Shown in pieces: positions 1,425 to 39,900 of a stretch of DNA of 64,000 nt. The notes beneath the pieces were generated by a model. It was not told where the DNA came from and ran no database searches. It worked only from the letters and a program-made list of their open reading frames with translations. Made by a program: the position numbers and the translations under genes. Each line of letters begins with the position of its first letter. Within the stretch, counting starts at the first letter, position 1. Source of the stretch: Cyanidioschyzon merolae (lineage: Eukaryota); NCBI GenBank assembly GCA_000091205.1, contig AP006499.2. One strand, given 5' to 3'.

Positions 1425-1453
1425 GCTCACTCACTCACTCACTCACTCACTCA
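1425..1453. repeat. (CACT)n microsatellite, ~7 units
   Basis: cactcactcactcactcactcactcac is read directly in the promoter region between the CDK gene and the downstream ORF. Confidence 0.9.
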
Positions 1454-9638: not shown

Positions 9639-9858
9639 GGAAAACGTAGCGAAAGGAGAACACAACTGAAGTCTGAATGGCAACGAAGTGGTAGACACGC
9701 AGGTGCCTCGCGTAACGAGTGCTGTCCAGGGGTTGCGTTGGCGCCGGTGTGCTCATGTCCATGAAGCGATTTGCTGGACGGTGTGCATGATTGTACTGTT
9801 ATGTACTGTAATACAAAGTTTGTACGGAATGCCGGCTTTACGCGCACTGGGGCTGCCT

Positions 9859-10112
9859 CGCGTGCCCTGATCGTGGCCCTTGGCATGCAGAAACTGTACA
9901 GAAACGGATTTTGCTGCCCAGACATGTCGCGTGCCCTGATCGTGGCCCTTGGCATGCAGAAACTGTACAGAAATTCCTTTTCCTGCCCAGACATGTCGCG
10001 TGCCCTGATCGTGGCCCTTGGCATGCAGAAACTGTACAGAAACGGATTTTCCTGCTCAGACATGTCGCATGCCCTCATCGTGGCCCTTGGCATGCAGAAA
10101 CTGTACAGAAAT
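9859..10112. repeat. 69-bp tandem minisatellite, ~3.7 units
   Basis: Unit cgcgtgccctgatcgtggcccttggcatgcagaaactgtacagaaacggattttgctgcccagacatgt starts at 9859, 9928, 9997 and 10066. It reads as RALIVALGMQKLYRNxFxCPDMS x4 in the ORF track, and sits in the divergent intergenic region between PRA1 (-) and the MBOAT gene (+). Confidence 0.9.
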
Positions 10113-10231
10113 GCCTTTGCCTACCCTAGCAAGAAGGCGTGCTGCATGTGCTGCAGGCCGACCGTTTTGCGCAGCCGATCGCAGGCTGCCGGCAGCGAAG
10201 CGCCACGCACCAGTATACACGCTGTACCGGG

Positions 10232-11950
10232 ATGCGTGCTTGTGTGCGCTGCCAGGCACCAGCTCACGTGCACGAGCAGCACAAGCACTACCGACCCCTT
10301 ATGACGACAGAGTCTCCAGCGTCTGCTCCTGAAAATGAAGTGATCCAGGGCTCAAACGGTGTGCAGGATGATGCAGCAGCGGTTGAAGTGACTCGCCCTT
10401 CAATATACCCGCAGTCGCACCGTCCGCAACCGCGGGACGTGCCGCTGTCCTTCATCGACGAGCGCAACTTGTTGAGTGAGTTGAAAACATCACGTCTAGA
10501 GGGGTTTTATAACTTGAGTTTTCTCTTACTCGGTTTCGCGCTTTTCTACATGACAGTGCGCTCTATTGTCGAAAAGGGACTGCTCGTGGACTTTGGTGGC
10601 ATCTTGTTTCGTTGCCCAGCGTTCTTGTCCGATGTCTGGTTCGTTCTTCGATTCTCCGCAGCACTTTGGGTGTATTCTCTGCTTTTCTTCCTCTTAGTTT
10701 GGCTGGCTATGGCCCAGAAGCAATACAGTCGCCGTCGCTGGTTACAGCGGCTGCGCATCGCGCTTGCAGTCTGCGGCTACATCGCAGTCCAGGCGGTGTT
10801 ATACTGTGGAAGCACTTGGGTGCTCTGGCAACGACCAACGACACCAGCGCTCGGAGGATTCCTGACTCTTTGGGTTATTACGATATCGCTGAAAGGTCAC
10901 AGTTATTTCATCACAAATTGGTACCTGGCCGAGGAAGCGGAACGAGCTTGGCGAGAACGGGCGCGTCGCAAAAAGGAGACACCCGTCGATGCGCATGAGG
11001 AGCCCCCGCACTCTGATGTAGCGCTTGGTGACGCTACATCTGGTACCACGAAGACCTCGCCAACGGAATCAGATCGTCAGTCGTCGTCTGACATGCCTGA
11101 TTCAAGGGCGGGAACGCAGAGCCGGCCCCTGAAGCGGGACTCCTCGGTATCGAGCGATCTCTCCAGCACGATGAGTGTCGGGTTTTCGCGTGCAGTCCGC
11201 CAGAATCGATTGCGTGGCTTTCCGGCGAATGTGAATTTGGGAAACTTTGCATACTTCATGGTCGCGCCCACGCTGGTCTACGAGACGGAGTATCCTCGCA
11301 CGGAGCGTGTCCGCTACCGCTACGTTGCAACGATGGTAGGCGTCATACTGCTCTGTATCGCGACTCAAGTAGCGATCATGCAGCAGTTTATGCTCCCAGT
11401 TTTACAGGGACAATCGGCTGGTTATTCTCTGGTTTATCATGCAGCAAAACTTGCGATTCCGTCCATTATTGTATGGCTGTTGGGTTTTCTGTGGTTCTTT
11501 CACTGCGCGCTCTCGGCATGGGCAGAGCTGCTTCGCTTCGCGGATCGTCAATTCTATCAGGATTGGTGGAACGCCACGACTCTAGAGTCATTCTGGAACA
11601 AATGGAATATGCTTGTGCATGAATGGGCTTTGCGTCATGTGTTCATTGAACTTCAGTACAGAAGCAAGCGAGTGAGCAAGGCAGCCGCCGGCTTTGCAAC
11701 ATTCCTCGTGAGCGCTGTGCTCCACGAATACCTGTTCGCTGTCGCGTTCAAGACGATCAGCGTTGGTATGTTTCTGGGAATGATGATTCAGGTTCCGGGC
11801 ATCTGGCTTACGCGACACTCGTATTTCCAGGGACGGCGTCGCGGCAATCTGCTCATGTGGCTAATGCTCTTTCTGGGGCATCCGCTGGGCGAGTTGCTGT
11901 ACTTTCGGGCGTATTTTCGGAACCATCATAACTTCTTCTGTCATGACTGA
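10232..11950 (+). CDS. MBOAT-family acyl-CoA acyltransferase, DGAT1/ACAT (sterol or diacylglycerol O-acyltransferase) type
   Basis: FYQDWWNATTLESFWNKWNMLVHEWALRHVF matches the FYxDWWN motif of DGAT1/SOAT. AVLHEYLFAVAF carries the MBOAT catalytic His, and there are multiple TM segments. The track start (10139) is GTG; the first ATG is 10232, with an alternative at 10301 (MTTESP). Confidence 0.85.
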   Translation: MRACVRCQAPAHVHEQHKHYRPLMTTESPASAPENEVIQGSNGVQDDAAAVEVTRPSIYPQSHRPQPRDVPLSFIDERNLLSELKTSRLEGFYNLSFLLLGFALFYMTVRSIVEKGLLVDFGGILFRCPAFLSDVWFVLRFSAALWVYSLLFFLLVWLAMAQKQYSRRRWLQRLRIALAVCGYIAVQAVLYCGSTWVLWQRPTTPALGGFLTLWVITISLKGHSYFITNWYLAEEAERAWRERARRKKETPVDAHEEPPHSDVALGDATSGTTKTSPTESDRQSSSDMPDSRAGTQSRPLKRDSSVSSDLSSTMSVGFSRAVRQNRLRGFPANVNLGNFAYFMVAPTLVYETEYPRTERVRYRYVATMVGVILLCIATQVAIMQQFMLPVLQGQSAGYSLVYHAAKLAIPSIIVWLLGFLWFFHCALSAWAELLRFADRQFYQDWWNATTLESFWNKWNMLVHEWALRHVFIELQYRSKRVSKAAAGFATFLVSAVLHEYLFAVAFKTISVGMFLGMMIQVPGIWLTRHSYFQGRRRGNLLMWLMLFLGHPLGELLYFRAYFRNHHNFFCHD

Positions 11951-13573: not shown

Positions 13574-15675
13574 TTTCGAAGCAAACGCCACACACCGTGC
13601 AGTCTTCTCTGTCCTGCTCACAAACAAGTTGGTTGGTCGAAACAAACCGCCAGTACGTTAAGTTTGGTATCGACGGTGGCGACCCAGAACAACGCACCTG
13701 CAGGAGAATTCGTGAAGCGTTGCGCGCTTGAACGCAATGTCGATTCGTGGTATGGGATCGTTGATACGAGGCAGGCGGTGAACAAATAGTTAGATAGATA
13801 ATTAGTTAGTTAGAGCGTCATGAGTGCTTGTATCGCTGGATGGTACCACAGCCATGATCGAGCTGATGCTCGTGAAGCGATCTATGTTGCTTCTTCGGCA
13901 GAAGGTGTATATCGACGGGGGTTCTAAGTTGCACGCTGGACATCAGCGATCGGGGAAAAACGTCCATCGTTCCACCAACCTTGAAATTCCAATCATCATT
14001 ACGCTCACCAGCGATAACGGTCATTTTGTACGTTCAGTCGTGCGTCGGGCCTAGTGTGAGCGACCGCAAATGGCCCCTCTAGCACCTGTGTGGAAGGAGC
14101 ACGGAGATAGAATCCATATCCCAGGCAGGTAATGGTGTCGGCTCGAGGCCCGGTTCATCGGACGCGGGTTTGGGAGTGATCGTCGACGGGTGCTCCGGCA
14201 GTCTCCGGGAAGCGACTAGGTGCGTTTCAGCAGACCCCAGCGGTACATGCAACGCCGTCGCAAGCTTCTGCAGAAAGTCTGGCAGCTGAAGAATGCCGCG
14301 TTGATCAGGTCACGACGTTTTTCGTAGGATACTGGACGTGAACAAGCGGAACGTGGATTTGTCCGGTAAGGAGCAAAGGTCACTTCCCTGGCTACAAGCA
14401 GCATGCACGGATGGGTTAGCGTTCTCGTTCAATACATTGGTGCTACGCTTGCAAACGAAACGCTAGCATTTTCCGCTCCTCACATGCTGCATACATGGAG
14501 CACACGGCAAACGAGCACGAACGAAACGCCAGCATCACCATAGCACTCCGCTCGTGTGGCACTCTCTAGGATGCACATTGATCTCGCATCATAGCAAGGG
14601 TGCCGCTTGGGATCCCTGGTTCATCTCATCGATTGCTCACCATGAACGAAACATGGATCTCGGGGAGTCGGTCGTAGACAAGTATTCGCAATGCCGGGAG
14701 CCCGCCGGCCATGCAGATGCAGTACCCCGTACGTCTGGGATGATCACGAGATCCGTTTTCATGTGGGCGTCTGTCATGCTTCATTGCGGGTATCTCGTGC
14801 CTCTTTACCATGCGGCAGTGAGGCATCCGGTGTACTACCCGCTCATACCGGAGCGCGACCTATCGAAACGTACCGAGAACAAGAGCCAAGGTTACTGATA
14901 GCATGACGCAGCGCGTCACCATCTGTGTCAACGACGACAGGTGACCCCTGCTTCACACTCGTGCAGCTGTTGCCATCGATTTTGGTACCATACATTCGAT
15001 GGGTACCGCGGTTGCTTGAACACATCGCGAAGGATACATGAAGCGTTGACACCATGCAGTCGGAACACTTCCTCGACACTGGCGGCGTGGTCGTTCTCCA
15101 AACCGGAATCGATCCACTTGGGATGATGGTGTCGGCGAGTCGCCGCTGCCGGAGGTGCTGCAGCAATTTTGGCGCTTCTGGTATCCCAAAAGCGACACGT
15201 CCTAGACGGCATTGTGTTGCTCTGGTGGAGGCACCGTCGTCAAAAAGCGCATCCTGCCTGGTTCCGTGCATTTCAGGTCGCTCGGCGTTGCAGTCGAGTC
15301 GAGAGAATGCCCAGAACTGTGGCGACTTTCCCATGTACCGGATGCGTATTCGTGTACACGACCATGAACCTGGTGCGACTGAAACACCACGCTCATTCCG
15401 TATGGACTATGAGACTCAAGACAGACCCGAATGATACACATGGCACTGAGGTCTACGATTTCATCCGCATGGACATGTGAAGCATGTGCGAGATCAAGCA
15501 ATCGTTTTTTTCCAGGGACGCTGTAGCACCGCTGGATCAAGGTCGATCCCCAACTAGGCGTGCGAACGCTATCGAGCATGCTCCACAAGGTTCATCGAAA
15601 ACAACCTCTGCACCATGAATACAAGTAGAACATGCAGATCCTACACTTGCGGCTGAACGGAAACGCTGAACGCCC

Positions 15676-16455
15676 ATGGACGATGCACCAAAATACTCGT
15701 CAACGATTGGTTGCTTGTTGTTGTTGTTCCTGCTGCTGCTTCTGCTCCTTTATTCACGTGGACGTTGCGAGACCGGCGTTTGGAAGACGCGTCCTCTCCG
15801 AGCGATGGAAACCTATGGTGCTTGCGTCGTCGGCCTTGCACCAGAATGTTTGCAGCCGCTGCCCAACATGAGTGGCAAGTTTATGGGGGCACTCTCGGTA
15901 CCGACGCTCGGGACTGAAAACTCCAACGCGACGCCATGTGCGAAACCCGTTGTGCTCGCAGTGTGGAGGGCGGCTCCGCAGCCGCTCGTGCACGTACCAA
16001 ACTGTTGCAGAGCTGACGTGTTTCTCTCGTTTGACCAGGGCGCTTCCTGGGTTGCAGCCGCAAGCCTGGACCCCGGGCAGAACTCTTGTCTGGTGGTGAT
16101 TCCGGCAGCGTTTCTGGAACAGACTTGGCGTAGCTCTAAAGTTCCAGGCCACGCTATTCTTCAAGTTGGTATTAGTGTAGAAGATGCCAGTGTTGTTCCA
16201 CGACCTGCTCAGGCCACCGGACTCACCCAGGTGGGTTTCGGGGAACATCCGCTTGCCGCCACCGCAGCCGGTACCGGTGTCGTGCCGCCGGGTTTACCGC
16301 AGGCGCTGGCGCGCGACCTCTACCAGTTTCTGCATAGCTTTGATACGACGTTACCAGAGCGTTGTTCTCCTCTGCTTGATCGATGGCTGAAGCGTGTCGA
16401 GCGTCGCTTCGAAGCCGATCCCTGCTGGTGGCGACGCGTGGGGCAAAACACCTGA
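15676..16455 (+). CDS. hypothetical secreted/membrane protein with N-terminal signal peptide
   Basis: A true ATG at 15676 is followed by LLLLFLLLLLLLYSRGRC (a Leu-run signal peptide from (GTT/GCT)n at 15715-15745). The 259-aa ORF has no recognisable domain. Confidence 0.35.
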   Translation: MDDAPKYSSTIGCLLLLFLLLLLLLYSRGRCETGVWKTRPLRAMETYGACVVGLAPECLQPLPNMSGKFMGALSVPTLGTENSNATPCAKPVVLAVWRAAPQPLVHVPNCCRADVFLSFDQGASWVAAASLDPGQNSCLVVIPAAFLEQTWRSSKVPGHAILQVGISVEDASVVPRPAQATGLTQVGFGEHPLAATAAGTGVVPPGLPQALARDLYQFLHSFDTTLPERCSPLLDRWLKRVERRFEADPCWWRRVGQNT

Positions 16456-17039
16456 GTCGGCATGGTGTTCACGTGGATACGCAGATGCTAGAGCATGGTG
16501 TGCACTGCGGGAACAGGTCATACTTGGAGGTGTCGACGCTTGCAATGCTAGGATCGTTGGTCGTCGCTGTCAATGAGCGATATCCGCGGGACTGCTTGGC
16601 TGGGCGATGTCACCAAGCTTTGATGAAAGTTTTTCCTCGAAGCGAAAATTTTTTATATAAATACACCGGATAAAACCCAAGTGGATCGTGTCTACAACGC
16701 TGCTGCTGGCGCAGACGAGGCAATGCTCTGGCATCAGAGGCCTTAGTATATGACAAGCAGCGGGAAGTAGCGCGGGTTTTCATGGGTACGCTTCACGCCG
16801 GTGGTATCACGAACGATCATCCCCGGCGTCTGTGGGAAGAGATGGATATGGCTGGGCGGCAGAGATGAGCTGCGCGTATCATGATACCCATGGCAGCGTA
16901 AAATGGAATGCCTCACGAGACCAAGTAGACCGTTCAGGTTCAAGTTTGGCGCTCGATCCGATTTCTTCTACAGAACCGTATCTGCCGGCTTTTTGAGTAA
17001 CTGCTTGTTTTTTCTCGTTAAATGCCGACTGCACCCACA

Positions 17040-17290
17040 CACACACCGGGCTCTTCTTTCGCTCCAGTTTCGGGGCGAAAAGTCGAAGGATGTGGATCGG
17101 AGCGTTCAAGTCCCGATTTAGCTACTTTTGGCCGTTGTTTACGCAAATCACACGCAGGTAGAAGCAGCTATCTCCGCTTCGCTTATCATTTCCATCTCGT
17201 TTGTCGACAGTCTCGACGCACTCCGCGCAGCGGTGACATGTAGCTGTTGGCATTGGGTCCTATACGTCTACGAGACCTGCTGCTACGTGC
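17040..17290 (-). mobile_element. TnpB/Fanzor-like relic, subfamily 2 (3'-terminal fragment)
   Basis: Minus-strand reading gives ...TCHRCAECVETVDKRDGNDKRSGDSCFYLRVICVNNGQK*LNRDLNA (CxxC zinc-ribbon remnant plus a RuvC-III-like NRDLNAxIN). The nucleotide sequence is homologous to 31920..32130 (agcgttcaagtcccgattt(a/c)gctactt, gcttcgctt(a/g)(t/c)catttccat..gtt.gtcgac, gcggtgacat). Confidence 0.5.
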
Positions 17291-18399
17291 ACTGCGCCGT
17301 CGCACCTGAACGTTTACTTGATCGAACGGTACATTCTCGTGATGAGTACAGAAGGTTAACCTCTGTGCCTTGCTCCGTTTTCGCGACAGGTGTCGTCAAC
17401 GACGACCACGGGCATCCAGCGGGCTATCCGTTCGGCGCGTACGCTGTCCGCAGCAGGTGCAAGCGCTCACCGTTCCATTCCATAGAGGACTTGAGGAGCG
17501 CGATGCTTTCCAGGATAAAGCAAGTACCTGAAGCAGAATCCAGGCTGAGGAACAAGTCGAGCATTTCGATTTGTCTACGCTCTCTTCCTGCAAAGCAGTG
17601 ATACGTTCGCCGCAAAAAGCGATCGCTGCGCTGACTCAACCCCGAGTTTAAGGTCCATTTCTATGCCAGTAGTAGAGACGACAGCCTCTAGGCGCATATA
17701 CAATGCGAGGTATCATGCTGCTGATGCATTGCATTTCTCTGATGCCTCTCAAGTGAGGGGGATGTTCGTTTCGAACGGAATCGATTGGTTGAAGTAAGAC
17801 GTTTGGTGAATGTTCCGGATGGTCTGGTGGATCATTCGTCAAGGAACGAAACGTCCGGTACGTTTCTTCGTCCGTGGAGCCGTGCGAAGGGCTTCGCCAA
17901 CGATTTCGCTTGAAACACGAAGATCGGGAGCTTGGAAGCCGCGTGCTTTCCGCATACTGTACATAAGGAAAGGAGAAGAGAGCAGGCCTTTGCGTTGGAA
18001 TTCGGTGGTGGTACCACTTATCTTACGTACCGTATTACGAGAGCCCCGCGAATAACGTTGAAGACGGTTGGATAACGAATCCAGTGGCAAAGCGTCGACG
18101 CAGCTACTTCGAAACCTGATTAAGAAACCTACACTACGATTGCATTCCAAAGCACTTATAGTCTCTCATCTCAAATTCGTTTTACCCCCCAGGTGCATGT
18201 CATCAAATTCATTTTCGTGGTTTATAGCAAATATGTTCGAAGTGCTCTCATTTGGAAGAAATAGAAAATCCATGGAAAGGGGCGGACCTGGAAGTCAAGG
18301 ATCCTGCAGGCTCGATGTCGCCGGGTTCAACAGCTTTTGGAAAAAAATCCTCTTCTTGGCAACCATAGAGCGAAGAAGAACAAGTGACGGAGAAGAACA

Positions 18400-18740
18400 A
18401 GAAGGGAGATAGGTGAGAAAATGTATTCGTCCGAAGTGACGATGACGAGACTTTAGTGTCACAGAAGACGCGAGTTCTAGGAATCCTCCTATCGCTGAGT
18501 TCAACCAACGGCAGGAAACGCATTGAGTTCGTGAACCGAGACTTTAATACCGCCATCAATATCAGACGATGTGTGGCGTTGGAGACGAGTCCCGAAGAAC
18601 CAAGGCAATGCAACTTCATGATGCAGCCTCTGACGCTCGTCGTACGACTGGATACACCGAGGCCGATAGCAGGCGGCCGGGGGAAAAAGACTGCGAAGCG
18701 TTTGCGGAACAGTATGTATACACTTACCGTTCAGGATCTT
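18400..18740 (+). mobile_element. TnpB/Fanzor-like relic, subfamily 1 (last ~35 codons plus conserved 3' non-coding module)
   Basis: The plus-strand ORF reads QKTRVLGILLSLSSTNGRKRIEFVNRDFNTAINIRRC (motif at 18528..18569). Downstream ~170 nt (gatagcaggcggccggggg..aaaaagactgcgaagcgtttgcgg..gtatgtatacacttacc) aligns with the 3' regions of the 21.5k, 36.6k and 46.1k copies. Confidence 0.55.
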
Positions 18741-20513
18741 AGGGCGTTGTCCGTTTTCACTCATCACATATTGCAGAGCGTGGTATTTCAAGCCTGCACA
18801 GCGATCAACATTTCGGCTAAAAATCGAAAGGCAAACATCGCGCGAGCTCCATGGTCCCCCAGTTTCGTCTCGTACGAGTGTAGACACGTCCTCTGGACTT
18901 GATGCAGAAGCAGCCGATATCGATAAGCGACACCTGTACAGCACTTGGAGCCTCACGTGTTCTGGTTGAAGCTGATCGTGCACATGTCCACGCATCTTGC
19001 TAGAGAAGGCATCATCGAATAGATTTTCACCGCATCCATACACCTGCTCAGATGATGCAGGTTCTCCATGAGCGTGCATCTGTGCTGCGCAGACACATCG
19101 CGTCTCGAAAAGAAACACAGGCGCTGCAATCAAGTGCGGATCTGAGGATTGCTGGACAACACGAATCGATGCAGGACCTCGGAGCCATTAGCTCGCAGTT
19201 CAGATTCGGGACCCAGCGACGGCTTGTACCGACATCGATTACCGAAAGATATGTGCATGGCGATAGCTAGACTCGGAAATGCAGGAGGAATCGGTATGTG
19301 ACGTTCTGGAGAACGACCTGAAGCGGAATCGAATCATACCAATGTCTGAAGAGACTCTTGTCGAACGGCGGTCCAGTATGACGTGTCACGGGTATGCAAG
19401 ATCATCACGTGATTGGTTTCTTGTGCAGATCCATTGAAAATATCGCATGGAGATGAAGAGCGAGCGTAAAGAGGCAGCCATGCATCAGTCGAGCGCAGGC
19501 CACGAGCGCTACCCTGGAAGGCCGGGTCGCCGACGCAGCACCACAAGCTGCACTCCACGCCTGGCAGCCATTCTATGCCAGTTGGTGCAACATCGCCAGC
19601 ATCCTGGCTCATGGGCAAAGTCTCGGTTGCATAGTGATGTCCAGGCGAGCCGGATTCGCTGATCGCCTCCAGCTGGCAGTACCAGACGCCGATGCGACGT
19701 GTAGCGCCCTGCATGGAAATGCCCAATCCATAGACATTTTGCGAGTCTCCAAATCGCACCGGGAAACATGTCCGCCGTTTAGGGTTCTGTATTTTTCATG
19801 GGGCGTGCCCAGTGTGTCGAACCTGAGCCCCCTGGACGTGTGATTCCTAACTGCGACCAGTAACGCATTCGCGGTTCGAATAGAGAGCTTTTGGGTTTTC
19901 ACAGAGCCCGGGCATGTGTCACACAGCCGGAAATGTGGTATGCATCCACTTTGCGACGTTCCAGGATCCAGAACATGCCATTGGCGCTTGCTGCGATGCA
20001 TTGCTCTGTAGCGCCACCGCGATCACTGTCCAGGGACAGCGCCGCTTTTCGGTGCTCCAATGGAGGCGTCGGCTCGAGGTAAATTCCTCTGTATTGGAAG
20101 CAAGCAGCGTAGATTCTGTGAAATGCCTCCATCGTGACGCTACGGCCGTTCAAGTGCGCTCCGCTCCTGACGCGAATCCCTATTCGGTATGCATCCGTGG
20201 ATTCCCAGTTGCGAATCGCGTCAGCTGCGGTTCCACTGCATCACACCTCTCAAAAAGTGATCGGGGTTTACGAATGGGCGTTTTTGGCCAGCGATAACAA
20301 GCTGTTGAGATTCATACGAATGCATCCCGTTCTTCAGTCCTGGGGCTCATAGTGAACATTCAGCGAGTGCCCGGTGCCAGGTACGGAAGCCAAGGACGGT
20401 CGAGTCGGCAACCAAACGCGCTGCTTTGAAGGATCCACTCGCCGAATGAATCGTCATCAAATCGCATTCCAGTTTTGATGTCGTTGCCGTCTGAGTCGAC
20501 GCTTTACGACCGA

Positions 20514-21371
20514 TCAAGCGAAGGCATATGCCTGGAAACGAAGTTTCTCAGCGAGGTACCGATTCGCCGCAAGAATACCTCTACCGTCGAGAATGAACTG
20601 CGCTCCGTTTGGCAAGAGACAAACACCACCAGCTTCCTCGACAAGCACTTGACCAGCGGCGAGATCCCAGGTATACGGACCCCATTCCGTGACCACATCG
20701 AAACGTCCACAAGCGACGAAGGCCATATTCAGGGCGGCACTGCCGGTGCTTCGAACCGCTTGGGTGCCGTTCTCGAGGATAGATCGCACCATTTCCAGCA
20801 TCATGGCGACTTTGGAGGCGGAGCGATCACTACCGTATTCGGTAGCAATACATGCATCGGGGAGTTCGCTCACACCGCTACAGAAGATCGGCTTGCCGTT
20901 CAGAAACGCCCCTCGACTGCGGCGGGCAACGAACATCTCCTCCATGATGGGGTTGTACACAACGCCCAGTCGAGCTTGACCTTCGGTGATCAACGCAATA
21001 GAGACAGCACATAGCGGAATATGGTGTACGAAGTTGGCCGTGCCGTCGATCGGGTCGATTGCCCAGGTCGGCGGGTCCAAGTCTTTGACCTGGAGGCTTT
21101 CAGGGCGCCCGTCGAAACCCTCTTCCCCGAGCACTCTGTGGCCCGTACCGTACCGCTCCAGGATGCGCCTTCGGCAGAGCTCCTCGACAGCTCGGTCAGT
21201 TTCTGTTACCGGATCCGTACGTTTCTTAACGTCGTATGCCGTGTGGTACCCGCCCACTGGAGCAGTTCGGAACGGCCAGTCTTTGAAGAAAGCCTGGCGA
21301 ATGAGCTCGCCGCACTCACGAGCCAGTGCTTCTGCGAAAACAAGTGCCTGATCCAGCTCCGACTCGAGCAT
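20514..21371 (-). CDS. inositol monophosphatase family protein (IMPase/FIG superfamily)
   Basis: PVTETDRAVEE, WAIDPIDGTANFVHHIP and VVTEWGPYTWDLAAG are the canonical IMPase metal-binding motifs. The track start 21539 is TTG; the first ATG (MLESELDQALVFAEALAREC) is at 21371, which matches the usual IMPase N-terminus. Confidence 0.85.
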   Translation of the reverse strand: MLESELDQALVFAEALARECGELIRQAFFKDWPFRTAPVGGYHTAYDVKKRTDPVTETDRAVEELCRRRILERYGTGHRVLGEEGFDGRPESLQVKDLDPPTWAIDPIDGTANFVHHIPLCAVSIALITEGQARLGVVYNPIMEEMFVARRSRGAFLNGKPIFCSGVSELPDACIATEYGSDRSASKVAMMLEMVRSILENGTQAVRSTGSAALNMAFVACGRFDVVTEWGPYTWDLAAGQVLVEEAGGVCLLPNGAQFILDGRGILAANRYLAEKLRFQAYAFA

Positions 21372-21603
21372 ACCTCGAGCCTTCAATCCTATGCAGGTAT
21401 ACGCTGCGTTGCCTGCGTAATGTCGTAGTAACCGTGAAGCTTGTCGTGGAAAAGTGCAGCACCGACAGCGAACGCCTTTCAAAAGAAAAACGCTGCCGCC
21501 GGCAGCGTACAGCCGTGGCGAAAAACCCGCCCTCGACAAGACGTCTCCAGCTGACGTGCAGACGCCTCCCAGACTTTTTTGGACCGGCCACCTACTACTG
21601 GTT

Positions 21604-23315
21604 TCAACTTCTTCTCATATAATTCCACCTTGTGAAGTTCCCCATAAAATTCTCTCTCGTCAAGTACGCAAGTCTTCTTTCCATCACCGCCCTTCTCCTG
21701 ATATTGATAGCGGCATTAAAGTCGCGATTCACAAACTCCATCCATTTCTTGTTGCAGCTGGTAGCACTTTCCATTGCAAGTAGTCCTCGAAATTTAACCC
21801 TCCTTTCCATTTGCTCATCTGTCAGCGCTCCGTACTTTTATATATCTTCAGGACTCCGCTGGCACTTTTCCATTTCGACCCTCTGAAGTGTACACCCCAG
21901 TTCATGGTGTGTATGGGACGTTCGAAACTCATCTACAGGTATTGTAACAAAACGCCTTGCGCACTCCTTGTATGTTCTTGCCGTTGGAGCTGGTGTAGTC
22001 CCTTTTTGGGTCTTCCAGCGCCCTGCTCCGTACGCTACTAGGAGCCTCTGACTTTCATCCTCCTTCAAGGCACTCAACTGATTGAAAAAATTCGCGAATG
22101 CACGCTGCTTCCCACAATACAAACTCATTCGCAAACGAGCCCACCGGGGCTTGCTGTACTCCTCCCACAGCGCATCCCAATGGGCGATGCGAACTTCCAT
22201 GAATGTCCGAAAAGCGTTAAAGTCTGCTCGTCGGCTCGTCACCTCGCACAAAGATTCCAGGTGATCCTTCATTCCTGCATTCCATGTCTCGATTTTCTTC
22301 CTCGCATTCATTATACCAGATTCTCGATAGTATCTTGCTCTCGAGAACCTCAAAAGACGCTTGCCTTTCCGACGTAAGTGTCCGTCAGTACCATCTTCCG
22401 CGCGCTTGGGTACTGTGATGTTTATTATATTCGTGTTTGCGGGGTCCGCGCCACCGACAAAATCGTTGTTCTCATGCACTTCTTGCGTCGCAGGATCCGC
22501 CTCTTTGTTTTCTTCAAGCGCCGATAGTGTACGCATATGGATACGCCATTGGTTTCGATTATCCCAGTGAATACCTTTTGCTTGCTTACTTTGAGACGTT
22601 TGAAATCGAAGGTACTCTTCCAGTACGTCTCCCGATTTTCACCGATGAACTCTGTCTTCCTTACATTGAACTCCGGACAGATCTCCTTCATGATGCCGTA
22701 GAGGACTCTGGAGTCGATAGTCACAAAATTCGACTTGATGTGGCACAATGGAACTTCGTTGAAGTGCTTCTCCAGAACCGCAGCCTTCCGTTTCGCCCAC
22801 TTTTCATTTTTTTCCACACTCAGTTTGATCTCCGCTTTGCGTTCGACTTCTCGGTTCAAAAACATGACATAGTGCAGGATGAGGCGATAGCGTCTTTCTT
22901 CATCTTTTTTCATATCTAGTACCTCTTCTGCTCGATTCGCCAGCCCCAGTGCCGCACGATGCTCATGCATAACCGCACGGATCACAGAAGCCTCATTCTT
23001 TCTCCTGCGCGATGTCTTCTTGTTTACAAATTCGGTCTCCTGTTCGTTTTTACTAACGTTCGTGACGCCATCGATGATGGTCCATATCCCTTTGCGAGAC
23101 AGGTCCGGGCGGAGTGCGAACACGGCGCGTATCATGAAACGTTCGAGGTTCATCGTGAAATGATTCTTCATGTTCGTGAGGTACCTCATGGCCCCGTGGG
23201 TGTGCATATCCGCGTCACCCTTGTATCGAGTACCGTTGATGCTACAGAAGATATATTTTTCGTGGAGGGCGTGCACTAGCTCATTTTCACTCCGCATATC
23301 CCATGTGCCAAGCAT
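21604..23315 (-). pseudogene. TnpB/Fanzor-like (OrfB zinc-ribbon, RuvC-III) transposon-encoded nuclease gene, disrupted; plus conserved 3' module 21470..21603
   Basis: Three collinear minus-strand ORFs: 22425..23315 (296 aa, ...[22 protein letters not shown]...); 21838..22536 (232 aa, a different frame with a 112-nt overlap, ...LLVAYGAGRWKTQKG...FVTIPVDEFRTSHTHHELGC...CQRSPEDI*); and after a single in-frame stop, 21604..21810 (...KKWMEFVNRDFNAAINIRRR). VDEFRTS..C resembles the TnpB VDExYTSxxCxxCG zinc ribbon, and NRDFNAAINI resembles the RuvC-III DxNAAxNI motif. A possible N-terminal extension is ORF 23338..23532. Confidence 0.55.
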
Positions 23316-24722
23316 CAGGTGACGAATAAAGGTCTTGTCAAAAAAACTCGTCCGGAACCTCGACTGTTTCTGTTCCCGTCACGTCACGATACATCCCCTT
23401 CACCAAATGCATTAGTCCCAAAGAAGCCTCACGAACACTCGTGGAGTACGAGTCGACACGATTTCTGATGGCCTCTCGGAAATCTTCCTTGTACGGATCC
23501 TTGATATGTTTAAGAAGACAGGCTTTCACCACTATCTCGTCGTTGTGTCGTCTTTTGTGCAGCTTCTGACGTCGGGTCTCCCCGTTTCGCTCCTACGTCT
23601 TCTCCTGTTCCCCTGAGCTCGGCTCTGATTTTCGTTTTTTCCCAGCAGCCGGCGGCACTGGGCCTCCAAGATCCTTTACTTACATCTCCAAAATTTTTTT
23701 GAAAGAGCACGCTCTTTGAACGATTCTGCGATAAAGCGCGAAAAAACACTTGAGTAAACTAAACTGAGGGTTCAAAAACGATTCAATTGAGAAACTATGC
23801 CACGACTTCAACACAAATACATCTTGTACGGTAGAGCAAGAAGACAATGAGTAGAATCGCGTTTCCCTTCAACGGCGAGAAACCAATACTGTCTCATGCC
23901 TGCCAGGATGGAGGTGCACGTATCGACCGCGCTATATAGAACAATGAAGAGAGACTAACCACTAACTGGCAACGATATGAGAAGTTCGTTCCCCCTCTAT
24001 GATAAACGTTACAAGTGGAAGGCTTTCCATGTTGTCGAAGGTTTACGTTCTAGGTGGAAGGTCCCTCGAGCTGGACGAATCTGCCGAGCTTGCGCTCCGT
24101 GCGACTCTGAAATGGCGGCCACTGTAGTGAAATCTGTGCAACTCATCCGCAGCGCAGTTTACTCTAGGACTCGGAGCGAGTAGAATGCATCTGGGCGACG
24201 CCAATGTTGCAGTTCTCTCCTAGCGTGCCGCTTCGCGCTGCCGCAGGCAGTAGGTCTACCGGTCCAGTTTGCAAGCTCCCGGAATAATGATAAACCCTGA
24301 CCCTGTGGCGGGTCGACGACGACTGGAGCGGACGCCGTCAGTGGTATGGCACAGCTCGTCTTTCTTCGTGTTGTAAAAGCACAAGTAGTATAGGCGGTCT
24401 TGCGGGTGGAGCTATGCAGGCACTCGGTGCACGATAGAACAAACGAAACGACCAGTTTCTCCCAGAGAACGTATACATCATGGATCCTAAAGGTAGCACA
24501 TATCGTGAAGGAAGCTTCCCTGAATGCCAGTATCCATGGTCAACGTAAACATTCTTTCAATCCAACAGAAAAGTACATCGGGATACCTGTGTCCGCTGAG
24601 CGAGACGTCGTCCGCCCAGGGCGCTGCCCCCGCGGGAGATCCGTCGAGTGCACCAGATAGGCCGCTCTGGCGTGCGTTCGGTGACCTTAGCTTTTTAAGC
24701 GCAATATTCGTTGAAACTTATA

Positions 24723-26213
24723 ATGTGGGCCAGCGTTCTTCGGTTCTTACCAAAGCATAAGGGAAACTTAGGTCGTTGTATGTCCGTGAGAGCCAGCGTC
24801 TTGCGTTCTGAGCATACGGCTCCGTTTTGGGAAGCACCATTGAGCAGGGCGTTGCCGCTGTACCAGGAGGGTTTCCTGCCCCGAACGGCTTCTGTGAGCC
24901 AAGCCGAGCCGACGCGCACCGAAACTGCACCCGTGCGCTTTCAGATGGCGCCAAGTGGAGCGGGGGACTCGTTGGTTTTTTTGCATGAAACATCGTCGGT
25001 ACGTGGTGCTCTCGAAGAGATGGTGCACCGGAATACCGCCTTTGTTCTCGTTGTGGGCGACCCCTTTAACCGGTCATCGCCAAAGGCGGACGTTCCTGCG
25101 TCAACTTCGGATATTGTGCGCATCTCCAGCGAAGCTGAGGGTGATGATCAGCGCGTTGATACCGAGCATGCTGCCGTGATCGGGTTGTTCACAGAGCGCG
25201 ACCTCTTGCGCTGCCTGGCGGACGCCGTCGCGGAGCAGCGCACCGGCGAAGCTGCAGCGCTCTCATTCCGTCTGCGGAAGGCGATGAGTCCGCTTTACGA
25301 TCGGTTTGGGACGCTAAAAGTGTCATCAAATACCATATATGATGCTGTTATGGTCATGCGGGAACGGAACATTCAAACCATACCCATCATTCGCGAGGAG
25401 GAGCACGAAGAGGACTACATCTTGCCGGGGGGTCATCCAGCAGCGGGCGAGAGCGCTTCCAGCAGCTACACCCTGGCATTGCCACCTCGATCGTTTTGTG
25501 GCGTTCTGACAGCACGCGATGTGGCTCGCTTCTTCCTCGCCCAAGATGCTAGCGTCCAAGATGCAGTCTGTAGCCTGGAGACGTCGACTGACGCTGGCGT
25601 CAGAGCATCGCGATCGACACGTCCGATGCTTCTGCGTCATCTCTTGTCTTGGCGCCTGCGTCGACTCTTTGAAGGCGCTCGACCTTTAAGTGATACTTTC
25701 CTCGAAGAAGACATCGTCGTGTACGAATCCGAGCATTACAGGGTGGTTTCAGTCCCTCGCTCGGCATCAGTGCGGGACGCGATCGCGGTCATGGCACAGC
25801 ACGATGTTCGTACGCTTCTGATTAGTGAGGACGCTAGTTCCGGCTTCGATGCAGCCGGACCCTATCCCAGTATTTACGGTGTCATTACGTTGCGAGATCT
25901 CATGAGGCAGGTCTTCTATCCACGAAGAAATCCGCTGGCGCTCAGCATGCAGACTCTCTTTCGTGAGCGCTGGACAGCGGCAGGGGTATCGAGGCCGCAA
26001 CTCGCAGCCGAGGAGCGCAAGTACGGAATCTCACCTGATGATGAAGTGGCGCATGCGCTGCGCTTGGTCGGTGGTATGAACGAGCGGCACATCCCAGTGT
26101 ACGTCTACAATGACGCTGATCAGACGAGCAACTGCGTCGCGATGGTGAGCGTCAAGGAGATGCTGTCGGGTGTCCATGCGGCAGAGCAGCGGCGGCGCGG
26201 GCAACGGTACTAA
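24723..26213 (+). CDS. CBS-domain protein (tandem CBS pairs)
   Basis: CBS-like segments recur: VIGLFTERDLLRCL, CGVLTARDVARFF, YGVITLRDLMRQV, VAMVSVKEMLSGV. The track start is TTG; the first ATG is 24723, and alternative internal ATGs are possible. Confidence 0.55.
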   Translation: MWASVLRFLPKHKGNLGRCMSVRASVLRSEHTAPFWEAPLSRALPLYQEGFLPRTASVSQAEPTRTETAPVRFQMAPSGAGDSLVFLHETSSVRGALEEMVHRNTAFVLVVGDPFNRSSPKADVPASTSDIVRISSEAEGDDQRVDTEHAAVIGLFTERDLLRCLADAVAEQRTGEAAALSFRLRKAMSPLYDRFGTLKVSSNTIYDAVMVMRERNIQTIPIIREEEHEEDYILPGGHPAAGESASSSYTLALPPRSFCGVLTARDVARFFLAQDASVQDAVCSLETSTDAGVRASRSTRPMLLRHLLSWRLRRLFEGARPLSDTFLEEDIVVYESEHYRVVSVPRSASVRDAIAVMAQHDVRTLLISEDASSGFDAAGPYPSIYGVITLRDLMRQVFYPRRNPLALSMQTLFRERWTAAGVSRPQLAAEERKYGISPDDEVAHALRLVGGMNERHIPVYVYNDADQTSNCVAMVSVKEMLSGVHAAEQRRRGQRY

Positions 26214-26470
26214 TGCGGTGACTAGGCGCTGCTGGTTGCCTGGTAGGTAGGGTGCCAAGCAACGCTGTCCTGGGGATTGTAGGCGAAAAGATGATCATCG
26301 TGCTCGATTTGCGCACCAGGAGCAACTTGCGTTGACCGATGATACCTGTAGACTACTCCAGACGAATGCTCGCGAAAGCATATATGCATTGATCACGCGA
26401 GCTGTTTAGAGTATAAGCGCTGGTGAAAAGGCACGCGCATACGCTTAACATGAACCTGTTCTATAACAGG

Positions 26471-26603
26471 CAAAACTGATGCTATGTGCTCCACATCGCC
26501 GCTTTGACCTGCGCAAGTTGTACCGTATTCGCAAATAGCGCTCAAAACTGATGCTTTGTGCTCCACATCGCCGCTTTGACCTGCGCAAGTTCTAGCGTAT
26601 TCG
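26471..26603. repeat. 72-bp tandem duplication (2 units)
   Basis: caaaactgatgct(a/t)tgtgctccacatcgccgctttgacctgcgcaagtt(g/c)ta(c/g)cgtattcg is repeated at 26471 and 26543. It lies in the intergenic region 3' of the CBS gene. Confidence 0.85.
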
Positions 26604-27513
26604 TGACATTTGTCAACACCATTGCCGCAGCCGCCTTCTCAAGGAGCGTATCCGGCATGCAACATGGACCTGTTCGAATGAGCAAGCGATACCCGCGTTT
26701 CACGACGTAAGCCGTCGCCTAGAGCACGTTTACCTAAACCATATAGTGTTGCTGATGCACGTGTCGTGCACGAGGCGCGCTGACACCGATCCCATGTACC
26801 TGGAGGATATATGGTTGCCCGAGTGCTTTCACAGGAAGCACAGGGCCCGCCAGCATATGTACACGCGGGAGCCTGCCAATGCCAAGCTCATCATCGGTGC
26901 TCATTTCGCTGCTGAACGCACCGTCACTGGCACCCTCCGTTGACTTGACAGCTCTGCGCGTTTCTCGACGAAAGCTATCGAGCGTGCATCTGAAGTAAGA
27001 CTCTGAGAAGGGCGTTTCTCTGCCTCCCATTATACACCTATGCCCGCGTATATGGCTCGGTTACGACACGTACAAACGCCGATACGCTGCGACTCGACTG
27101 CAAGAAGCAGCGCAACAGTGCCTGGAAGAGGTAACCCGCCACAAGTCGCCCGTTCATAGCGCAGCCAATGCGCGATACGGGTAAACGCGCATGCTCAAAA
27201 CGACAGCTTCTCTTTGTAGATACCAGCGATACGCGTATTGCTTAGTTGGCATGCACCGGACTCAGTTTAGAGCGCGCTCGTGAGCTTGCCACTCGGTCGA
27301 CGAGCACACGGTTGCAGTAGTTCGGCAGCTGCAAGCGTACGCGCACGTGCGCTACTAGAGCTGGAGCCCGACGCACACGCTGGAAACGCTTCGTCGTCGT
27401 CGTCGTCGTCGTCGTCGTTTCGCCAGCTTCCATGCAACTCCGCGAGGTCGCGGCAAGCGATCAAGTCGCAAGGTGTGATCACGCGAAACTCGCCGAAGAA
27501 GGATATCCCTGAC

Positions 27514-27537
27514 TAGCTAGCTAGCTAGCTGGCTGGG
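27514..27537. repeat. (CTAG)n palindromic microsatellite immediately 3' of the STE20-like gene stop
   Basis: ctagctagctagctagctggctgg; CTAG is self-complementary and gives stops in several frames on both strands. Nearby are a (TCG)8 run at 27393-27419 and (A)n/(T)n runs. Confidence 0.8.
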
Positions 27538-27540
27538 CGT

Positions 27541-30500: not shown

Positions 30501-30708
30501 TGATTAGATCATCGAGGGAGAGCGGCAAGCCTTCCAAGTTGATTACTTTGATCGCTACAGCTTCATTGCCGGCCGCAGGACAGATCGCCCGGTACACTGC
30601 TGAGTTTTCCCCGTGACCCAGCTCTTCGAGGAACTCGTACCCGTCAGGCGTCACCGGGTAGCGGCGCGGCGAAGCGGCAGTCACCACATCAACTCCTTTA
30701 TCCGCCAT
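27541..30708 (-). CDS. STE20-family (OSR1/SPAK/STRAD-like) kinase-fold protein with degenerate catalytic motifs and long disordered C-terminal extension with terminal coiled coil
   Basis: The N-terminal kinase domain has LGHGENSAVY, AVAIKVINL, HRNIKADNILL (HRD to HRN), LLTDYTYLG (DFG to DYT), FVGTPCWMAPEVM and DIWSFGITAIELAQG. The C-terminal ~750 aa are S/A/P-rich, ending in ...LRGELSSLRQEQGTLRRDIEALRQEMALVRQQLQHL. The track start 30855 is GTG; the first ATG (MADKGVDVV) is at 30708. Confidence 0.8.
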   Translation of the reverse strand: MADKGVDVVTAASPRRYPVTPDGYEFLEELGHGENSAVYRAICPAAGNEAVAIKVINLEGLPLSLDDLIKEIRVMSLSSHENVVPYRTSFSVGHNLWIVMPFVAGTPVGRILRHLYPEGFPDEAVIRYILHGTLRGLEYFHRNRQIHRNIKADNILLTPDARILLTDYTYLGLMLESGISRRLRQTFVGTPCWMAPEVMEQVSGYDYKADIWSFGITAIELAQGCAPYERFAPMKVLQLTLQGPPPTLEHPERFSSEFRAFVELCLHKDPHKRPSASELLKHPFMQTELPLENGWAANMLSRMPPLELNPLSEKERISLQRGHVASAGAGAKHPGQEPWSQQPASSASSSTMESQASQTGRRSPEHPRNVMGISGWNFADSPELIEAKRERDLQRIPESIAVPAPDRLQPVTDLAAVVSENEHIQSLGSSVVEPAPVRTSRASAETESALSQETAPAAENLVKVETGSSRRAGRFLLVDTEPSRPHTSPSTACLVHEDIITREMLTEDVRARASPRPGAVSADPCASDSSSTSSVRPRFYNQSVGSRNTAPPELGMRTGTSMTTDEGSTTITSLGDGIYPGNAQGQSTRRLLHSVESGNARPSEAAVTAAAAAASSSAAVHEASTSHPNRSSTPHVPSGGSALGEASRRSSHGRFEVIDIPLHQAMPTSASARAALSSGAAATTAQPPGSSASTGDVSPHNPLYVSLAALDGVFQQPQSATRSPPRAPKPKSPPPPPSRWATQPSMNNNHPNQRGYGSVPGTATCNAWQPHTRITASSSTSPKDPSTDASAAGTVPGRAQRATTNLPLANVSEEDLLALLHHARGLQRTLSALLAGNLQFAASAADISIGAGPASSAALYPGIPHGVSSIHDSGSGTGPLHSYVSPRVEHSQASGMESGAAAASGISVGPPAGTSGYSPALLPHPAMGAVPSGNGPIKPGNEPVEHLRGELSSLRQEQGTLRRDIEALRQEMALVRQQLQHLTVLAMPATTRAERVPLVSGSGSQQPTDVFGDSGDRAYPTNSTAATTNPKAGIGMSVASEAPQRSHHIGDPPGA

Positions 30709-36469: not shown

Positions 36470-36900
36470 CTTGCTTATGCATCTGTTGGATATGCGATCC
36501 GTAAAACAGAAAATGCGCCACGACCATGGCGGGTACGTTTCCATATACCCACGCGCAGACGCGTCCCAGCATTTTTGACTGGCTGCCTGCTATCGGTATC
36601 GGATTATCCAGGTAAACGTGGTGCTTGAGACGCTGCCCCACAAAGTTAGCTCGCGTTAGCTCCTTGGGTATCTCGTCAGTTGCACCGGAAATCGTCTGAT
36701 ACTGATATCGACGTTGAACTCTCGATTCACGAACTCCTTGCGTCCGTTGTCGCTGGTGGAACGCACCAGTGCAACGATCCCCGGAACGCGAGCCCTCTGG
36801 GTCACAACAGTCTCGTCGTCATCCCGTCGCGGAAACCCCGCGTCTCGTCTATCTTTCCTCTTTCTTTTGTCGTATGTTCTTCTGTGCTCGATGATTGACA
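36470..36900 (-). mobile_element. TnpB/Fanzor-like relic, subfamily 1
   Basis: The minus ORF 36656..36946 reads ...VVTQRARVPGIVALVRSTSDNGRKEFVNREFNVDISIRRF (motif 36692..36736), aligning residue-for-residue with the 18.5k and 46.2k copies. The downstream ~230 nt (gatagcaggcagccagtcaaaaatgctgggacgcgtctgcgcgtgggtatatggaaacgtacccgccatggtcgtgg) is conserved at the nucleotide level with 46.1k, 21.5k and 18.6k. Confidence 0.55.
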
Positions 36901-39900
36901 AACAGCGGATTTTTCCGGTTTTCCGGCATCTGGCGATCACGGGCATCTAGGATCCCCGACTTTTACGTCCATACCGTCCGCTTGGATTGTTTATTTCTTC
37001 AAAATGAACGCACTTTGAACGCGTCTGCTATAAACCACGAGAAAGCATTTGATTACAGGAACCCAGGAATAAAACACATTTGAGGCGAAAGACGACTAGG
37101 TGCACCGGTGCTTGTGATGCGTGTATGTTGTCCTTGACGTATGAAAGCGAATCATAGCACATCGTCTCCTGCACTCGTTGTGCGCTATCTTGGGCACAGC
37201 AGGAGTGCATTCTCGTGCGCGACAGCTCGTCCAGCGCCATCGTCAAGCACCAAATGATGCAGGTTATCAGTCAACAACGCTTCTGACTCATTGCACAAGT
37301 CGGTGAATGCACATTTCTTGCCTCCGTCCAATCGAGACGGGTCGGCAACCCCAGCGCGGTTACAGGCGTCTTTGACAAAAATCGTTCCCGTGATCCACTT
37401 GAACAGTCACGTTTTATCTAAATGAAGCGTACAGAGTCTCGCTGGCGGCTCGATACGGTTCTCAGAGTGTCGAGACTCGGCTGCTCACGCCGTGATTCCT
37501 CTTCCTGGCATGTCGCCTAGCATTCAGGATTCCCGACTGCAGATGATGTCGAGCCCCGGAGACGATGAGCAGCAGCATCTGCTTTTCGTTTTTGGCATCG
37601 GGTCCGTCCGTCCTTTAAATTTAGCAGTACGGAGACGCCCTTGGAGGTCTTCAATCCAGGATCCAAGTCCGTTGCCAAGTCTTTCTCTTCATCTACGTCG
37701 AGCGGATGAACATAAGAATCGTTGCCCGAATGGGACCTCGGTTTTCACCAAATGCATGCAGAGCGATGTGTGGTCGACCTCCATTGCCCCAGTACACTCG
37801 TTTTCATTTCCTCCCTGTGAACGTGAAACCTTGAACGAACTCCGTCACAATGTTCCTCATGAAGTTCTTCGAATGCTGCATGCCTGCTCGCGGAGACCAG
37901 ACGTAACGGACTGAGGTCGGCATGCAACGCAGTCCAGTCCAGAAGTATCTACGGGCACATGTACAGGAACACGGAGTTGGATACGGTTCCCCGATCGAAC
38001 GGAAACCTTGAGGAGGATTGAGTGCTCGGATCCGGGATGGCAGTCTGGTTTGCTGTCGAGGGCTCTGTTCAGGAAAATCCAGAAGCGAAAGATGCAACGA
38101 AGGTAGCGATGACGTACCCAGCGCCTTCTGGATACGACATCCCGCCGTCCGCAACCGTGTGCAGCACGACCAGCGTGAACGATCTGAAGCGAACCTCGTT
38201 CTCGTAGCGACACCTCTCCTGAACTCGCTACCACCCTTAGCGCTTCCGTCACCAGTTCGTCATTTGCATATAGCGAAAGACCAAGAATCCCTTACATCAG
38301 TCCCTGCTCCTCTGGGTCAGCTAGGTGATGGTATCAAGCCCATAGGTTGCATTTCACGAAGCGCTCGAGATGGACCCGTTGATGGATTTTCAGGTTCGTT
38401 AGATGCACTTTGTCACCTGTCCTCTGGACGTTCCGCTAGAAAACATGACAAGCCTGCGAGTCAACCTTTCATCCGAAACGCATTAGCAACTGTTTGATTC
38501 TGAGATCGAACCGTTTCGCATCTAATATCCTGGGGAATCGTTGTGTTGTTCCACGACAGCTAGATCAAACTTCCAAGCGAATGTGGTGAGCTTCCAGACC
38601 GGCTTCGCGACCTTGTACGAAGTTTGGCTTGACCAGGCGCGTCTAGACAAGGGAAGCAAGGCGGACCTTTCTCGAGTGAGAAGCTACTCGACCTCAAAAA
38701 GGGCTCTGCAATGCTCCATTCGAAAGATTCTCAACGCCGTATTGGTATGTTTGAATTTGGAGGCAATAAAATTGTTATCACAGTGAGCTTCTTGGTCCTA
38801 TGGTTTTCCGGTCTTGTGCCTTTTCGCCCTCTCTTCGGAATAATCTTTCTCTTCTATGGCTGGTGATGTCTTCTCTGTCTCTATTACTTGGCGGGATTGT
38901 AAAGCCCCTATGCTCTACATCCGTTCTTTCCCTCGTGACTCACATATGCGCTGGGTCCACGATAGGACTGAGACTCGTCTTTTCTAATTCCATTTCCAAA
39001 AGTTCTCAAGTACCTCCTCATCACCTTCTCCGTCGCAAGCAAGCCCGCGGACTGAAGGGCACCGTCCCGCTCGCTCCTGTACACGAGCACAGAAGCAGCA
39101 GAGCAGCCAGGGCCGGTGAAGATGCTCGAGAACGCATTGTCGAAGTGAGGTGTCACGGATCCGAACAACTCGTCTAATGATCCATGAATTGAAACATAGC
39201 GCTCGAAAAAACATAAAAGACGCTTTCGAACGGGTTGAAGCGGGGAGGCTAGGCTGGCATGAAGCGTTGGTCAAAGCCAGTCTCCACCGGATGCTTCTTG
39301 ACCGCTTTTGATTCATGGACATCGATGTTGTCTAACAGCAGCACCGAAGCATGCGGGATGGAGAATCCACAAAGCGTACGTCGACGAAGGATGCGGTTTC
39401 GAGCATTCCCTTCCGTTTGGCGATTCGTAGGTAACGAAACGATAGCATCGCAGCTATCGCTGGTGCTGTCGCCGTGCCCGGTTGTCGCTTCTTAACGAAA
39501 AGCGGATTACCCCGCTTTGTGAACCCATAAACAGGTCAGCAGCTTCCCGTGAATGAGTCTTGTTGAGTGAGACAAGCATACGTCCCTCCTGTACAACGCG
39601 GTCGTGTTTCAGTACGAAATCGATATGGTGTTGGTCAATGCGTAATGGTCTCCCAAAGGAGCGTGCTTTTTGCTTCGTCAATCTGTGTCATTTATCACTG
39701 TACGGATCAACGATTCGCAAACTCTACATCCTGTAGCTTATCAGATAGTAATTCTCAGAGTATGCATATGGTTTGGAATGCATGGACGAGGCGAAAATCG
39801 TGTGGATAGAGCTTGATAAGTGCTGCTTTGGGTCCACGACTTTCTACGAGAAGCGTGTTTCATCCATCCGTTGATCGTAGAATGGCTTTCTTGCACACCA

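Follow-up and report, generated by a model that had tools for sequence, protein, structure and literature searches.

The Fanzor1 family CMe-1A of Cyanidioschyzon merolae was described by Bao & Jurka (2013, Mob DNA 4:12, PMC3627910). According to that paper, about 150 copies are present, each about 80% identical to a consensus of about 3.2 kb. The copies are reported there to have no terminal inverted repeats (TIRs), target-site duplications (TSDs) could not be determined, and the class of transposable element (TE) is given as unknown. The 5′ 635 bp are described as common to a separate element, TE-N2_CMe, and the table of the paper contains only this one Fanzor1 family for C. merolae (PMC3627910).

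A 64-kb window, that is, the whole stretch of DNA analysed here, belongs to the same genome: its adenylosuccinate lyase ORF (51114-52814, minus strand) is identical at 550 of 550 residues to C. merolae 10D XP_005538142.1 and falls into the same 90% cluster. The CMe-1A consensus (3169 bp, taken from Additional file 2 of PMC3627910) matched the window at 24537-21473 (minus strand) from position 45 to 3169, with 82% identity over 3135 bp, and this is a full copy of the published family. The relic at 18.2-18.8 kb is, on the basis of sequence comparison, a derivative of CMe-1A, and very probably it is a copy, now dead, of a short non-autonomous form of this family with an internal deletion.

The most complete related copy of the window (21.6-23.6 kb, minus strand) was rebuilt to 661 amino acids by bridging two frameshifts and one stop. 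It was used as a query and yielded 71 homologues, nearly all from JGI metagenomes, and a protein profile (A1) was made from 15 full-length homologues. A DNA profile was made from four full-length copies, one in the window (at 22 kb) and the others in the metagenome loci L002 and L003. The search of A1 against PDB retrieved the Fanzor1 of Parasitella parasitica (9cf0, E=1.9e-7), with the ETDGV/DPG and the DEFRT...NRD regions aligned. Searches of the fragments with Pfam and NCBIfam gave only sub-threshold matches to Cas12f1-like_TNB and Cas12b; the family assignment depended on the search of A1 against PDB and on the consensus of Bao & Jurka. The parent family has the WED/RuvC core in common with Fanzor1 (Parasitella 9cf0, Spizellomyces SpuFz1) and bacterial TnpB, including the motifs ETDGV, DPG, DEFRT and NRDFNAAINI, while a canonical CxxC...CxxC zinc finger is missing from the CMe-1-type proteins that were inspected.

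Two further features of CMe-1A copies were observed. Many of them carry a coding tandem repeat of about 78 nt with variable copy number directly upstream of the RuvC-I DPG (profile 2072-2150; for example, L002 6540-6618), and four KHEE.K.A.P.TQ.VQDND..V units are present in protein P0001. The full-length copy in the window abuts the 5′ region of the inositol monophosphatase gene, since its 3′ end (21473-21478) lies within the upstream portion, probably not translated, of that gene's longest ORF.

Structure of the CMe-1A derivative at 18157-18771

The element and its parts are as follows:

18157..18771, plus strand: internally deleted CMe-1A Fanzor1 derivative, complete copy of about 615 bp (five-copy alignments, profile and consensus matches)
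18157..18461, plus strand: 5′ segment, CMe-1A about 786-1068, with 120 nt of leader before the Fanzor1 ATG and about the first 55 codons, ending ...DDDETLV
18462..18740, plus strand: 3′ coding remnant, about the last 90 Fanzor1 codons (CMe-1 residues about 645-734), fused in frame to the 5′ segment
18741..18771, plus strand: 3′-terminal non-coding tail, ...GTCCGTTTTCACTCATCACATAT, where the homology between copies stops

The original prediction had placed a TnpB-like relic at 18400-18740. The remnant itself was verified, and the limits turned out to be 18157-18771, with an uncertainty of about 7 nt at the 5′ side and about 1 nt at the 3′ side. Alignment of 18152-18771 with a second copy at 37103-36490 revealed 67% nucleotide identity, and the homology ended at both sides. 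In an alignment of 13 3′ ends of the short-form subfamily, the conservation stopped after ...TTTTCGTTTT..CATAT, which is position 18771 in the window.

Both halves of the relic were recovered at the DNA level with two methods. The DNA profile matched (nhmmer) at 18156-18408 with positions 746-975 (E=3.8e-23) and at 18473-18706 with positions 2804-3040 (E=4.6e-24), and the published consensus matched (blastn) at 18157-18324 with positions 786-948 (70%, E=4e-16) and at 18473-18592 with positions 2849-2971 (77%, E=5e-21). At the protein level, a six-frame search with A1 found positions 585-671 at 18381-18647 (plus strand) with E=1.6e-14, so that the remnant is clearly not a chance match. Around the relic, the same search gave no plus-strand match to positions 1-584. 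The segment 18462-18740 aligns with the C-termini of the intact relatives P0010 and P0009.

In the consensus the Fanzor1 ATG is at position 906, and the ORF (906-3110) encodes 734 amino acids. In the relic approximately codon 55 is joined to approximately codon 645, giving the junction ...DDDETLV^SQKTRVLG... (^ marks the junction). About 1.77 kb are gone (CMe-1A about 1069-2834), encoding Fanzor1 residues of about 56-644, and positions 1-785 of CMe-1A are also absent. Since the full structure of about 3.2 kb with a 734-aa ORF is missing, the relic is a derivative. In comparison with Fanzor1 and TnpB, only RuvC-III was kept (NRDFNTAINI at 18534-18563), while the RuvC-I aspartate (DPG), the RuvC-II glutamate (DEFRT), WED and REC are absent, and therefore the relic cannot be a nuclease. 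The motif had been reported earlier as intact and without a stop. The frame is indeed open from 18456, within ORF 18456-18902 (plus strand), which includes the peptide that had been quoted, but two in-frame stops are located directly upstream, and the motif is only the last of three RuvC motifs.

Two other readings of this region were rejected. A 'CSKC' at about 18225 had been considered as a Fanzor zinc finger, but the DNA profile places this stretch in the leader before the ATG. A processed retrocopy, with the deletion produced by splicing, was dismissed because no GT...AG boundaries of the consensus coincide with the junction (by inspection).

A recurrent short form and its nesting in a second Fanzor1 relic

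The short form is present a second time in the window, and it was surrounded in both cases by other Fanzor1-type relics:

36490..37103, minus strand: second window copy of the short form, same junction (profile matches 36802-37095 and 36547-36787)
16923..18156, minus strand: larger piece of a relic of 1.3 kb that belongs to a second Fanzor1 lineage with a zinc finger, called sub-2 here (nhmmer, sub-2 profile)
18772..18866, minus strand: rest of the interrupted sub-2 element, which resumes after excision (end extrapolated to about position 1335)
7000-8340, 31818-33123 and 49659-50944: further sub-2 copies (sub-2 profile match)
56454-57513 and 59771-60859, plus-sense coding: sub-2 copies in the opposite orientation, which keep ...KRSVDRN...VDNAAINN (sub-2 profile)

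The copy at 36490-37103 is nested in a decayed full-length CMe-1A (37118-38714, remainder 36287-36460). For comparison, 80 metagenome loci with relatives were fetched, which were selected for carrying Fanzor copies. The same junction and the same 5′ and 3′ limits were found in L044, L031 and L043/L022, where the flanks are unrelated in every case, and in the inverted pair L013/L014. The junction of these other copies reads ...DDDETVV^.QRARV.... The short-form copies are 66-74% identical to one another, and their K2P distances to a leave-one-out consensus are 0.30-0.37 (0.33 for the relic).

It could be argued that a full CMe-1A had inserted at 18.2 kb and had lost its middle in situ, so that the relic would be a one-off product of decay. 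Deletions are common in old TE copies, and CMe-1A copies with other deletions do occur, for example, in L031 (profile 648-1289 missing) and in L014 (457-1037 missing). However, such an origin is very improbable, because identical limits and an identical junction recur at 36490-37103 and in L044, L031 and L043/L022, with flanks that are all different. Due to this recurrence the relic is regarded as a member of an old non-autonomous deletion-derivative subfamily, which is represented at no fewer than three further independent metagenome loci. This subfamily is mentioned neither in the main-text passages nor in the Additional file 1 table or the consensus of Bao & Jurka (PMC3627910).

The 3′ terminus of the short form is common to full-length copies of the same subfamily ('3047-type'; L022, L053, L059, L064). 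The 5′ limit (profile about 746, CMe-1A about 786) is internal to the parent, full-length copies of which begin at about 1 or about 610, and this makes mobilization of the short form harder to picture. For some of the copies, recombination or gene conversion could be an alternative route of spread. A 3′ hairpin, CGCCA-TGGTCG-TGGCG in the 37-kb copy and TTCCA-TGGCCG-TGGAA in the 46-kb copy, was not consistently kept in the remaining copies.

Several observations concern the ends and breakpoints of CMe-1A. The starts of 21 profile matches in the fetched loci fall at 600-649 and point to a second discrete 5′ boundary. Head-to-head CMe-1A pairs, consisting of a full-length copy and a copy starting at about 617, with the 5′ ends about 60 bp apart, were found in L003/L004 (1751-7426) and L034 (427-6102). 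The short-form copy interrupts the CMe-1A at 36287-38714 (minus strand) at about profile position 2690, and a 5′-truncated fragment at 46070-46396 begins at profile 2697; this site may be a recurrent breakpoint.

The host of the relic was characterized with a profile of six sub-2 copies (1335 positions). It matched at 16923-18159 with positions 6-1239 (score 625, E=9e-190). When 18157-18768 was excised in silico, the match was extended from position 1239 to 1306, and the score rose from 625 to 645. As the sub-2 match stops exactly at the short form and resumes upon excision, the CMe-1A short form is nested inside a sub-2 element (16923-18156 and 18772-18866). That the relic adjoins a relic of a different lineage had been predicted correctly, but this second relic had been described as a 250-bp piece 1.2 kb upstream, while it is in fact 1.3 kb long and encloses the CMe-1A relic. 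No clear TSD was found at the borders ...GCACTTA^TAGTC...CATAT^TGCAG (excised join GCACTTA^...^TTGCAG).

The best sub-2 ORF (49751-50131, minus strand) was used in an exhaustive search, which retrieved mostly short fragments and one intact relative of 551 amino acids, P0232. This protein contains the motifs ETDGV, DPG, EHYTTQKCHRC and RNRDFNAAINI, and it keeps the zinc finger that was missing from the inspected CMe-1-type proteins. Its comparison with A1 (hhalign, probability 98.5%, E=3e-15) indicates that sub-2 is derived from Fanzor1. Sub-2 is a second Fanzor1 lineage, with six copies in the 64-kb window, all of which are decayed. The copies at 56454-57513 and 59771-60859 (strand entered as minus, coding sense plus) are 3.3 kb apart and have the same internal deletion (profile about 294-563); the pair is either a second copied deletion derivative or a local duplication.

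Decay of the relic and the load of Fanzor-derived DNA in the window

A metagenome contig from another strain (L001) is 99.17% identical to 14520-33529 of the window and has the same nested structure. The relic differs at 13 positions in 615 bp (2.1%), which is the highest value in this 19-kb comparison; the values are 0.3-0.4% for genes, about 1.0% for the tract and about 0.7-1.0% for neighbouring non-coding DNA. The raised divergence could be due to hypermutable sites or to gene conversion among copies. Within 18456-18740 all six strain differences are on codon positions 1 or 2 (hand count), and the position-1 differences at 18573, 18600 and 18657 are non-synonymous. The identities of five copies at the three codon positions are 0.69/0.66/0.62, and thus there is no codon-position signal. 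Every other copy that was compared has stops or frameshifts in the frame of the remnant. The open frame of the relic is due to chance, and the intact motif does not indicate preservation: RuvC-I and RuvC-II have been lost, the strain differences fall on positions 1 and 2, and the sister copies are full of stops. A SNP-free stretch at 18761-19567 was considered as a sign of constraint and was dropped, because such a gap had P=0.18 in a simulation.

Fanzor guide RNAs come from the 3′ non-coding region that abuts the right end of the transposon (PMC10530073), and for this reason the 3′ ends were analysed for structure. RNAalifold predicted no pairs for the 3′ regions of 12 copies of the short-form subfamily, and for 30 full-length 3′ ends it yielded a weak fold of -9.7 kcal/mol with covariation of about 0; both are weak tests with decayed copies. 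These results bear on the idea that the short form is functional, either as a satellite providing only a guide RNA (fRNA/omegaRNA) or as a mini-gene of about 145 amino acids, working together with Fanzor1 from full-length copies. The retention of the 3′ end and of the leader before the ATG is compatible with this idea, as is the in-frame fusion of the N-terminus with RuvC-III in the window copy. Nevertheless, it is extremely unlikely, given the RNAalifold results, the mutual identity of only 66-74% among copies that carry stops and frameshifts and lack a codon-position signal, and the top rank of the relic in strain divergence. The satellite version alone, with transcription from the leader, an fRNA scaffold at the 3′ end, a guide derived from the flank and Fanzor1 supplied by full-length copies, has very little likelihood. 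It is very unlikely for the present decayed copy at 18.2-18.8 kb and more conceivable for an ancestral master copy. If it were true, the short form would correspond in eukaryotes to solo omegaRNA or PATE-like derivatives.

The two relics are located between converging genes, a Hikeshi-like ORF (weak Hikeshi-like_C Pfam match) and an inositol monophosphatase gene (Pfam E=2e-62). TE DNA makes up 1.94 kb of the spacer, and about 2.1 kb are left without it. The non-TE parts of the spacer, and one additional CMe-1A piece, are:

16456..16922: unique non-coding flank, downstream of the Hikeshi-like ORF 15676-16455 (plus strand); no Pfam match in the ORF tested
18867..20513: unique non-coding flank, downstream of the inositol monophosphatase 20514-21539 (minus strand); no Pfam match in five ORFs
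13958-14184, plus strand: CMe-1A 5′-module fragment (profile positions 25-256, E=2e-10)

As the last of these matches the 5′ module only, it fits the separate element TE-N2_CMe. It had been stated that the tract contains no recognizable host gene, and this was confirmed for 16456-20513: no Pfam (eight ORFs), Rfam or tRNA match was found, and the coding potential was weak. The clusters of the tract ORFs consist of automatic metagenome calls only and have no C. merolae RefSeq or EukProt member, unlike the adenylosuccinate lyase cluster. The possibility had been raised that the tract is unique host sequence spanned by an expressed spliced gene. The rest of the tract is indeed unique, but no gene was detectable. 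C. merolae reportedly has only a few dozen introns, which makes a spliced gene across the tract improbable a priori. A decayed composite transposon had also been suggested. No long inverted repeats were found in 16400-20600, and a search of the tract for direct repeats also gave nothing relevant. The flanks (16400-16930 and 18760-20520) showed no repeated sequence when compared with the window and with 84 related loci (537 kb), so that with neither terminal inverted repeats nor repeated flanks the arrangement is a simple nested insertion.

Fanzor-derived DNA amounts to about 14.1 kb, or 22% of the window, in at least 12 pieces instead of the six TnpB-like fragments counted in the original prediction, and relics are present in roughly 10 of about 17 intergenic spaces (hand count). 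With such a load, spread over the majority of intergenic spaces, shared spaces and nested copies are to be expected by chance and no hotspot is needed, which disagrees with the preferred insertion zone that had been proposed. The pieces are divided into four plus-sense and eight minus-sense ones (hand count), and this was judged to be no strand bias. The relic had been called the only copy on its strand; this holds true for the family-1 protein profile, but at the DNA level 56454-57513, 59771-60859 and 13958-14184 are also plus.

Targeted insertion was weighed against this background, that is, the short form could home to Fanzor elements or to a GCAC motif 1-3 nt before its 5′ end, and the tract would be a true preferred site. 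Both short-form copies of the window are inside other Fanzor1-type relics, the copy of L031 is 58 bp from a sub-2 end, and three of five copies have GCAC before the 5′ end. However, with TEs occupying 22% of the window and, as a rough estimate, close to one half of its non-genic DNA, the chance probability of two nestings out of two is about 0.2, and the short form does not have the same position and orientation relative to sub-2 in L031 as in the window. Moreover, GCAC may belong to the element itself, the full-length consensus having GCAAAGTATAGT at this place, and the sample is biased, because the loci were picked for carrying Fanzor copies. Targeting is thus very improbable.

Three features elsewhere in the window were recorded. 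The sole tRNA call is at 53100-53187 (plus strand, ARAGORN), with the anticodon tta ('tRNA-Stop'); possibly an unusual tRNA gene, for example one with an intron, was parsed incorrectly here. The ORF 9771-10304 (plus strand) has about four tandem units of 26 amino acids (SRALIVALGMQKLYRNGF.CPDM), directly upstream of the long ORF 10139-11950. A direct repeat of 61 nt (26471-26531 and 26543-26603, 95% identical, 72-nt spacing) is found downstream of a CBS-domain gene; it gave off-diagonal matches when the two strains were compared.

Proposed history and comparison with known elements

The following history is proposed for the relic as a dead copy of the short form. An ancestral CMe-1A element would have lost about 1.77 kb (about 1069-2834), while the leader, about 55 plus about 90 codons and the 3′ end stayed. 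The short form would then have been copied several times, presumably in trans by the machinery of CMe-1A itself. One copy would have entered the older 1.3-kb sub-2 relic in a tail-to-tail spacer, where insertions would be little harmful, so that passive retention, and not targeting, would account for its place. The spread and the insertion are inferred from the common junction with different flanks and from the excision experiment in silico. Neutral drift would have acted since, and the relic would now be inert, encoding no nuclease and giving no indication of a guide RNA.

The relic is ordinary genomic debris of a known family in a published genome, and its importance is very small: it is a rediscovery of one of about 150 catalogued CMe-1A copies, and it opens no new question. 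Minor increments are the recurrent deletion-derivative subfamily of CMe-1A with a defined junction, the remains of a second, zinc-finger-bearing Fanzor1 lineage in C. merolae, and the finding that Fanzor debris makes up about one fifth of the window in an otherwise very compact genome. The results may be of use for TE annotation in Cyanidiales and for picking intact Fanzor1 orthologues for biochemistry.

Like the published CMe-1A, the relic has no TIRs and no definable TSD, and the 5′ 610-650 bp (approximately) of CMe-1A behave here as a separable module, as published for TE-N2_CMe (PMC3627910). A Helitron was rejected, because the ends TAGTC...CATAT do not agree with 5′-TC...CTRR-3′, a subterminal 3′ hairpin and insertion between A and T. 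The relic differs from MITE-like and PATE (IS200/IS605) derivatives in having no TIRs, no palindromic ends and no TSD, and only one of the two parental termini was kept, namely the 3′ end, while the 5′ limit is internal to the parent. In common with them it is a short unit without the coding middle, and copies with one and the same deletion junction are dispersed over the two window sites at 18 and 37 kb as well as L044, L031, L043/L022 and L013/L014.
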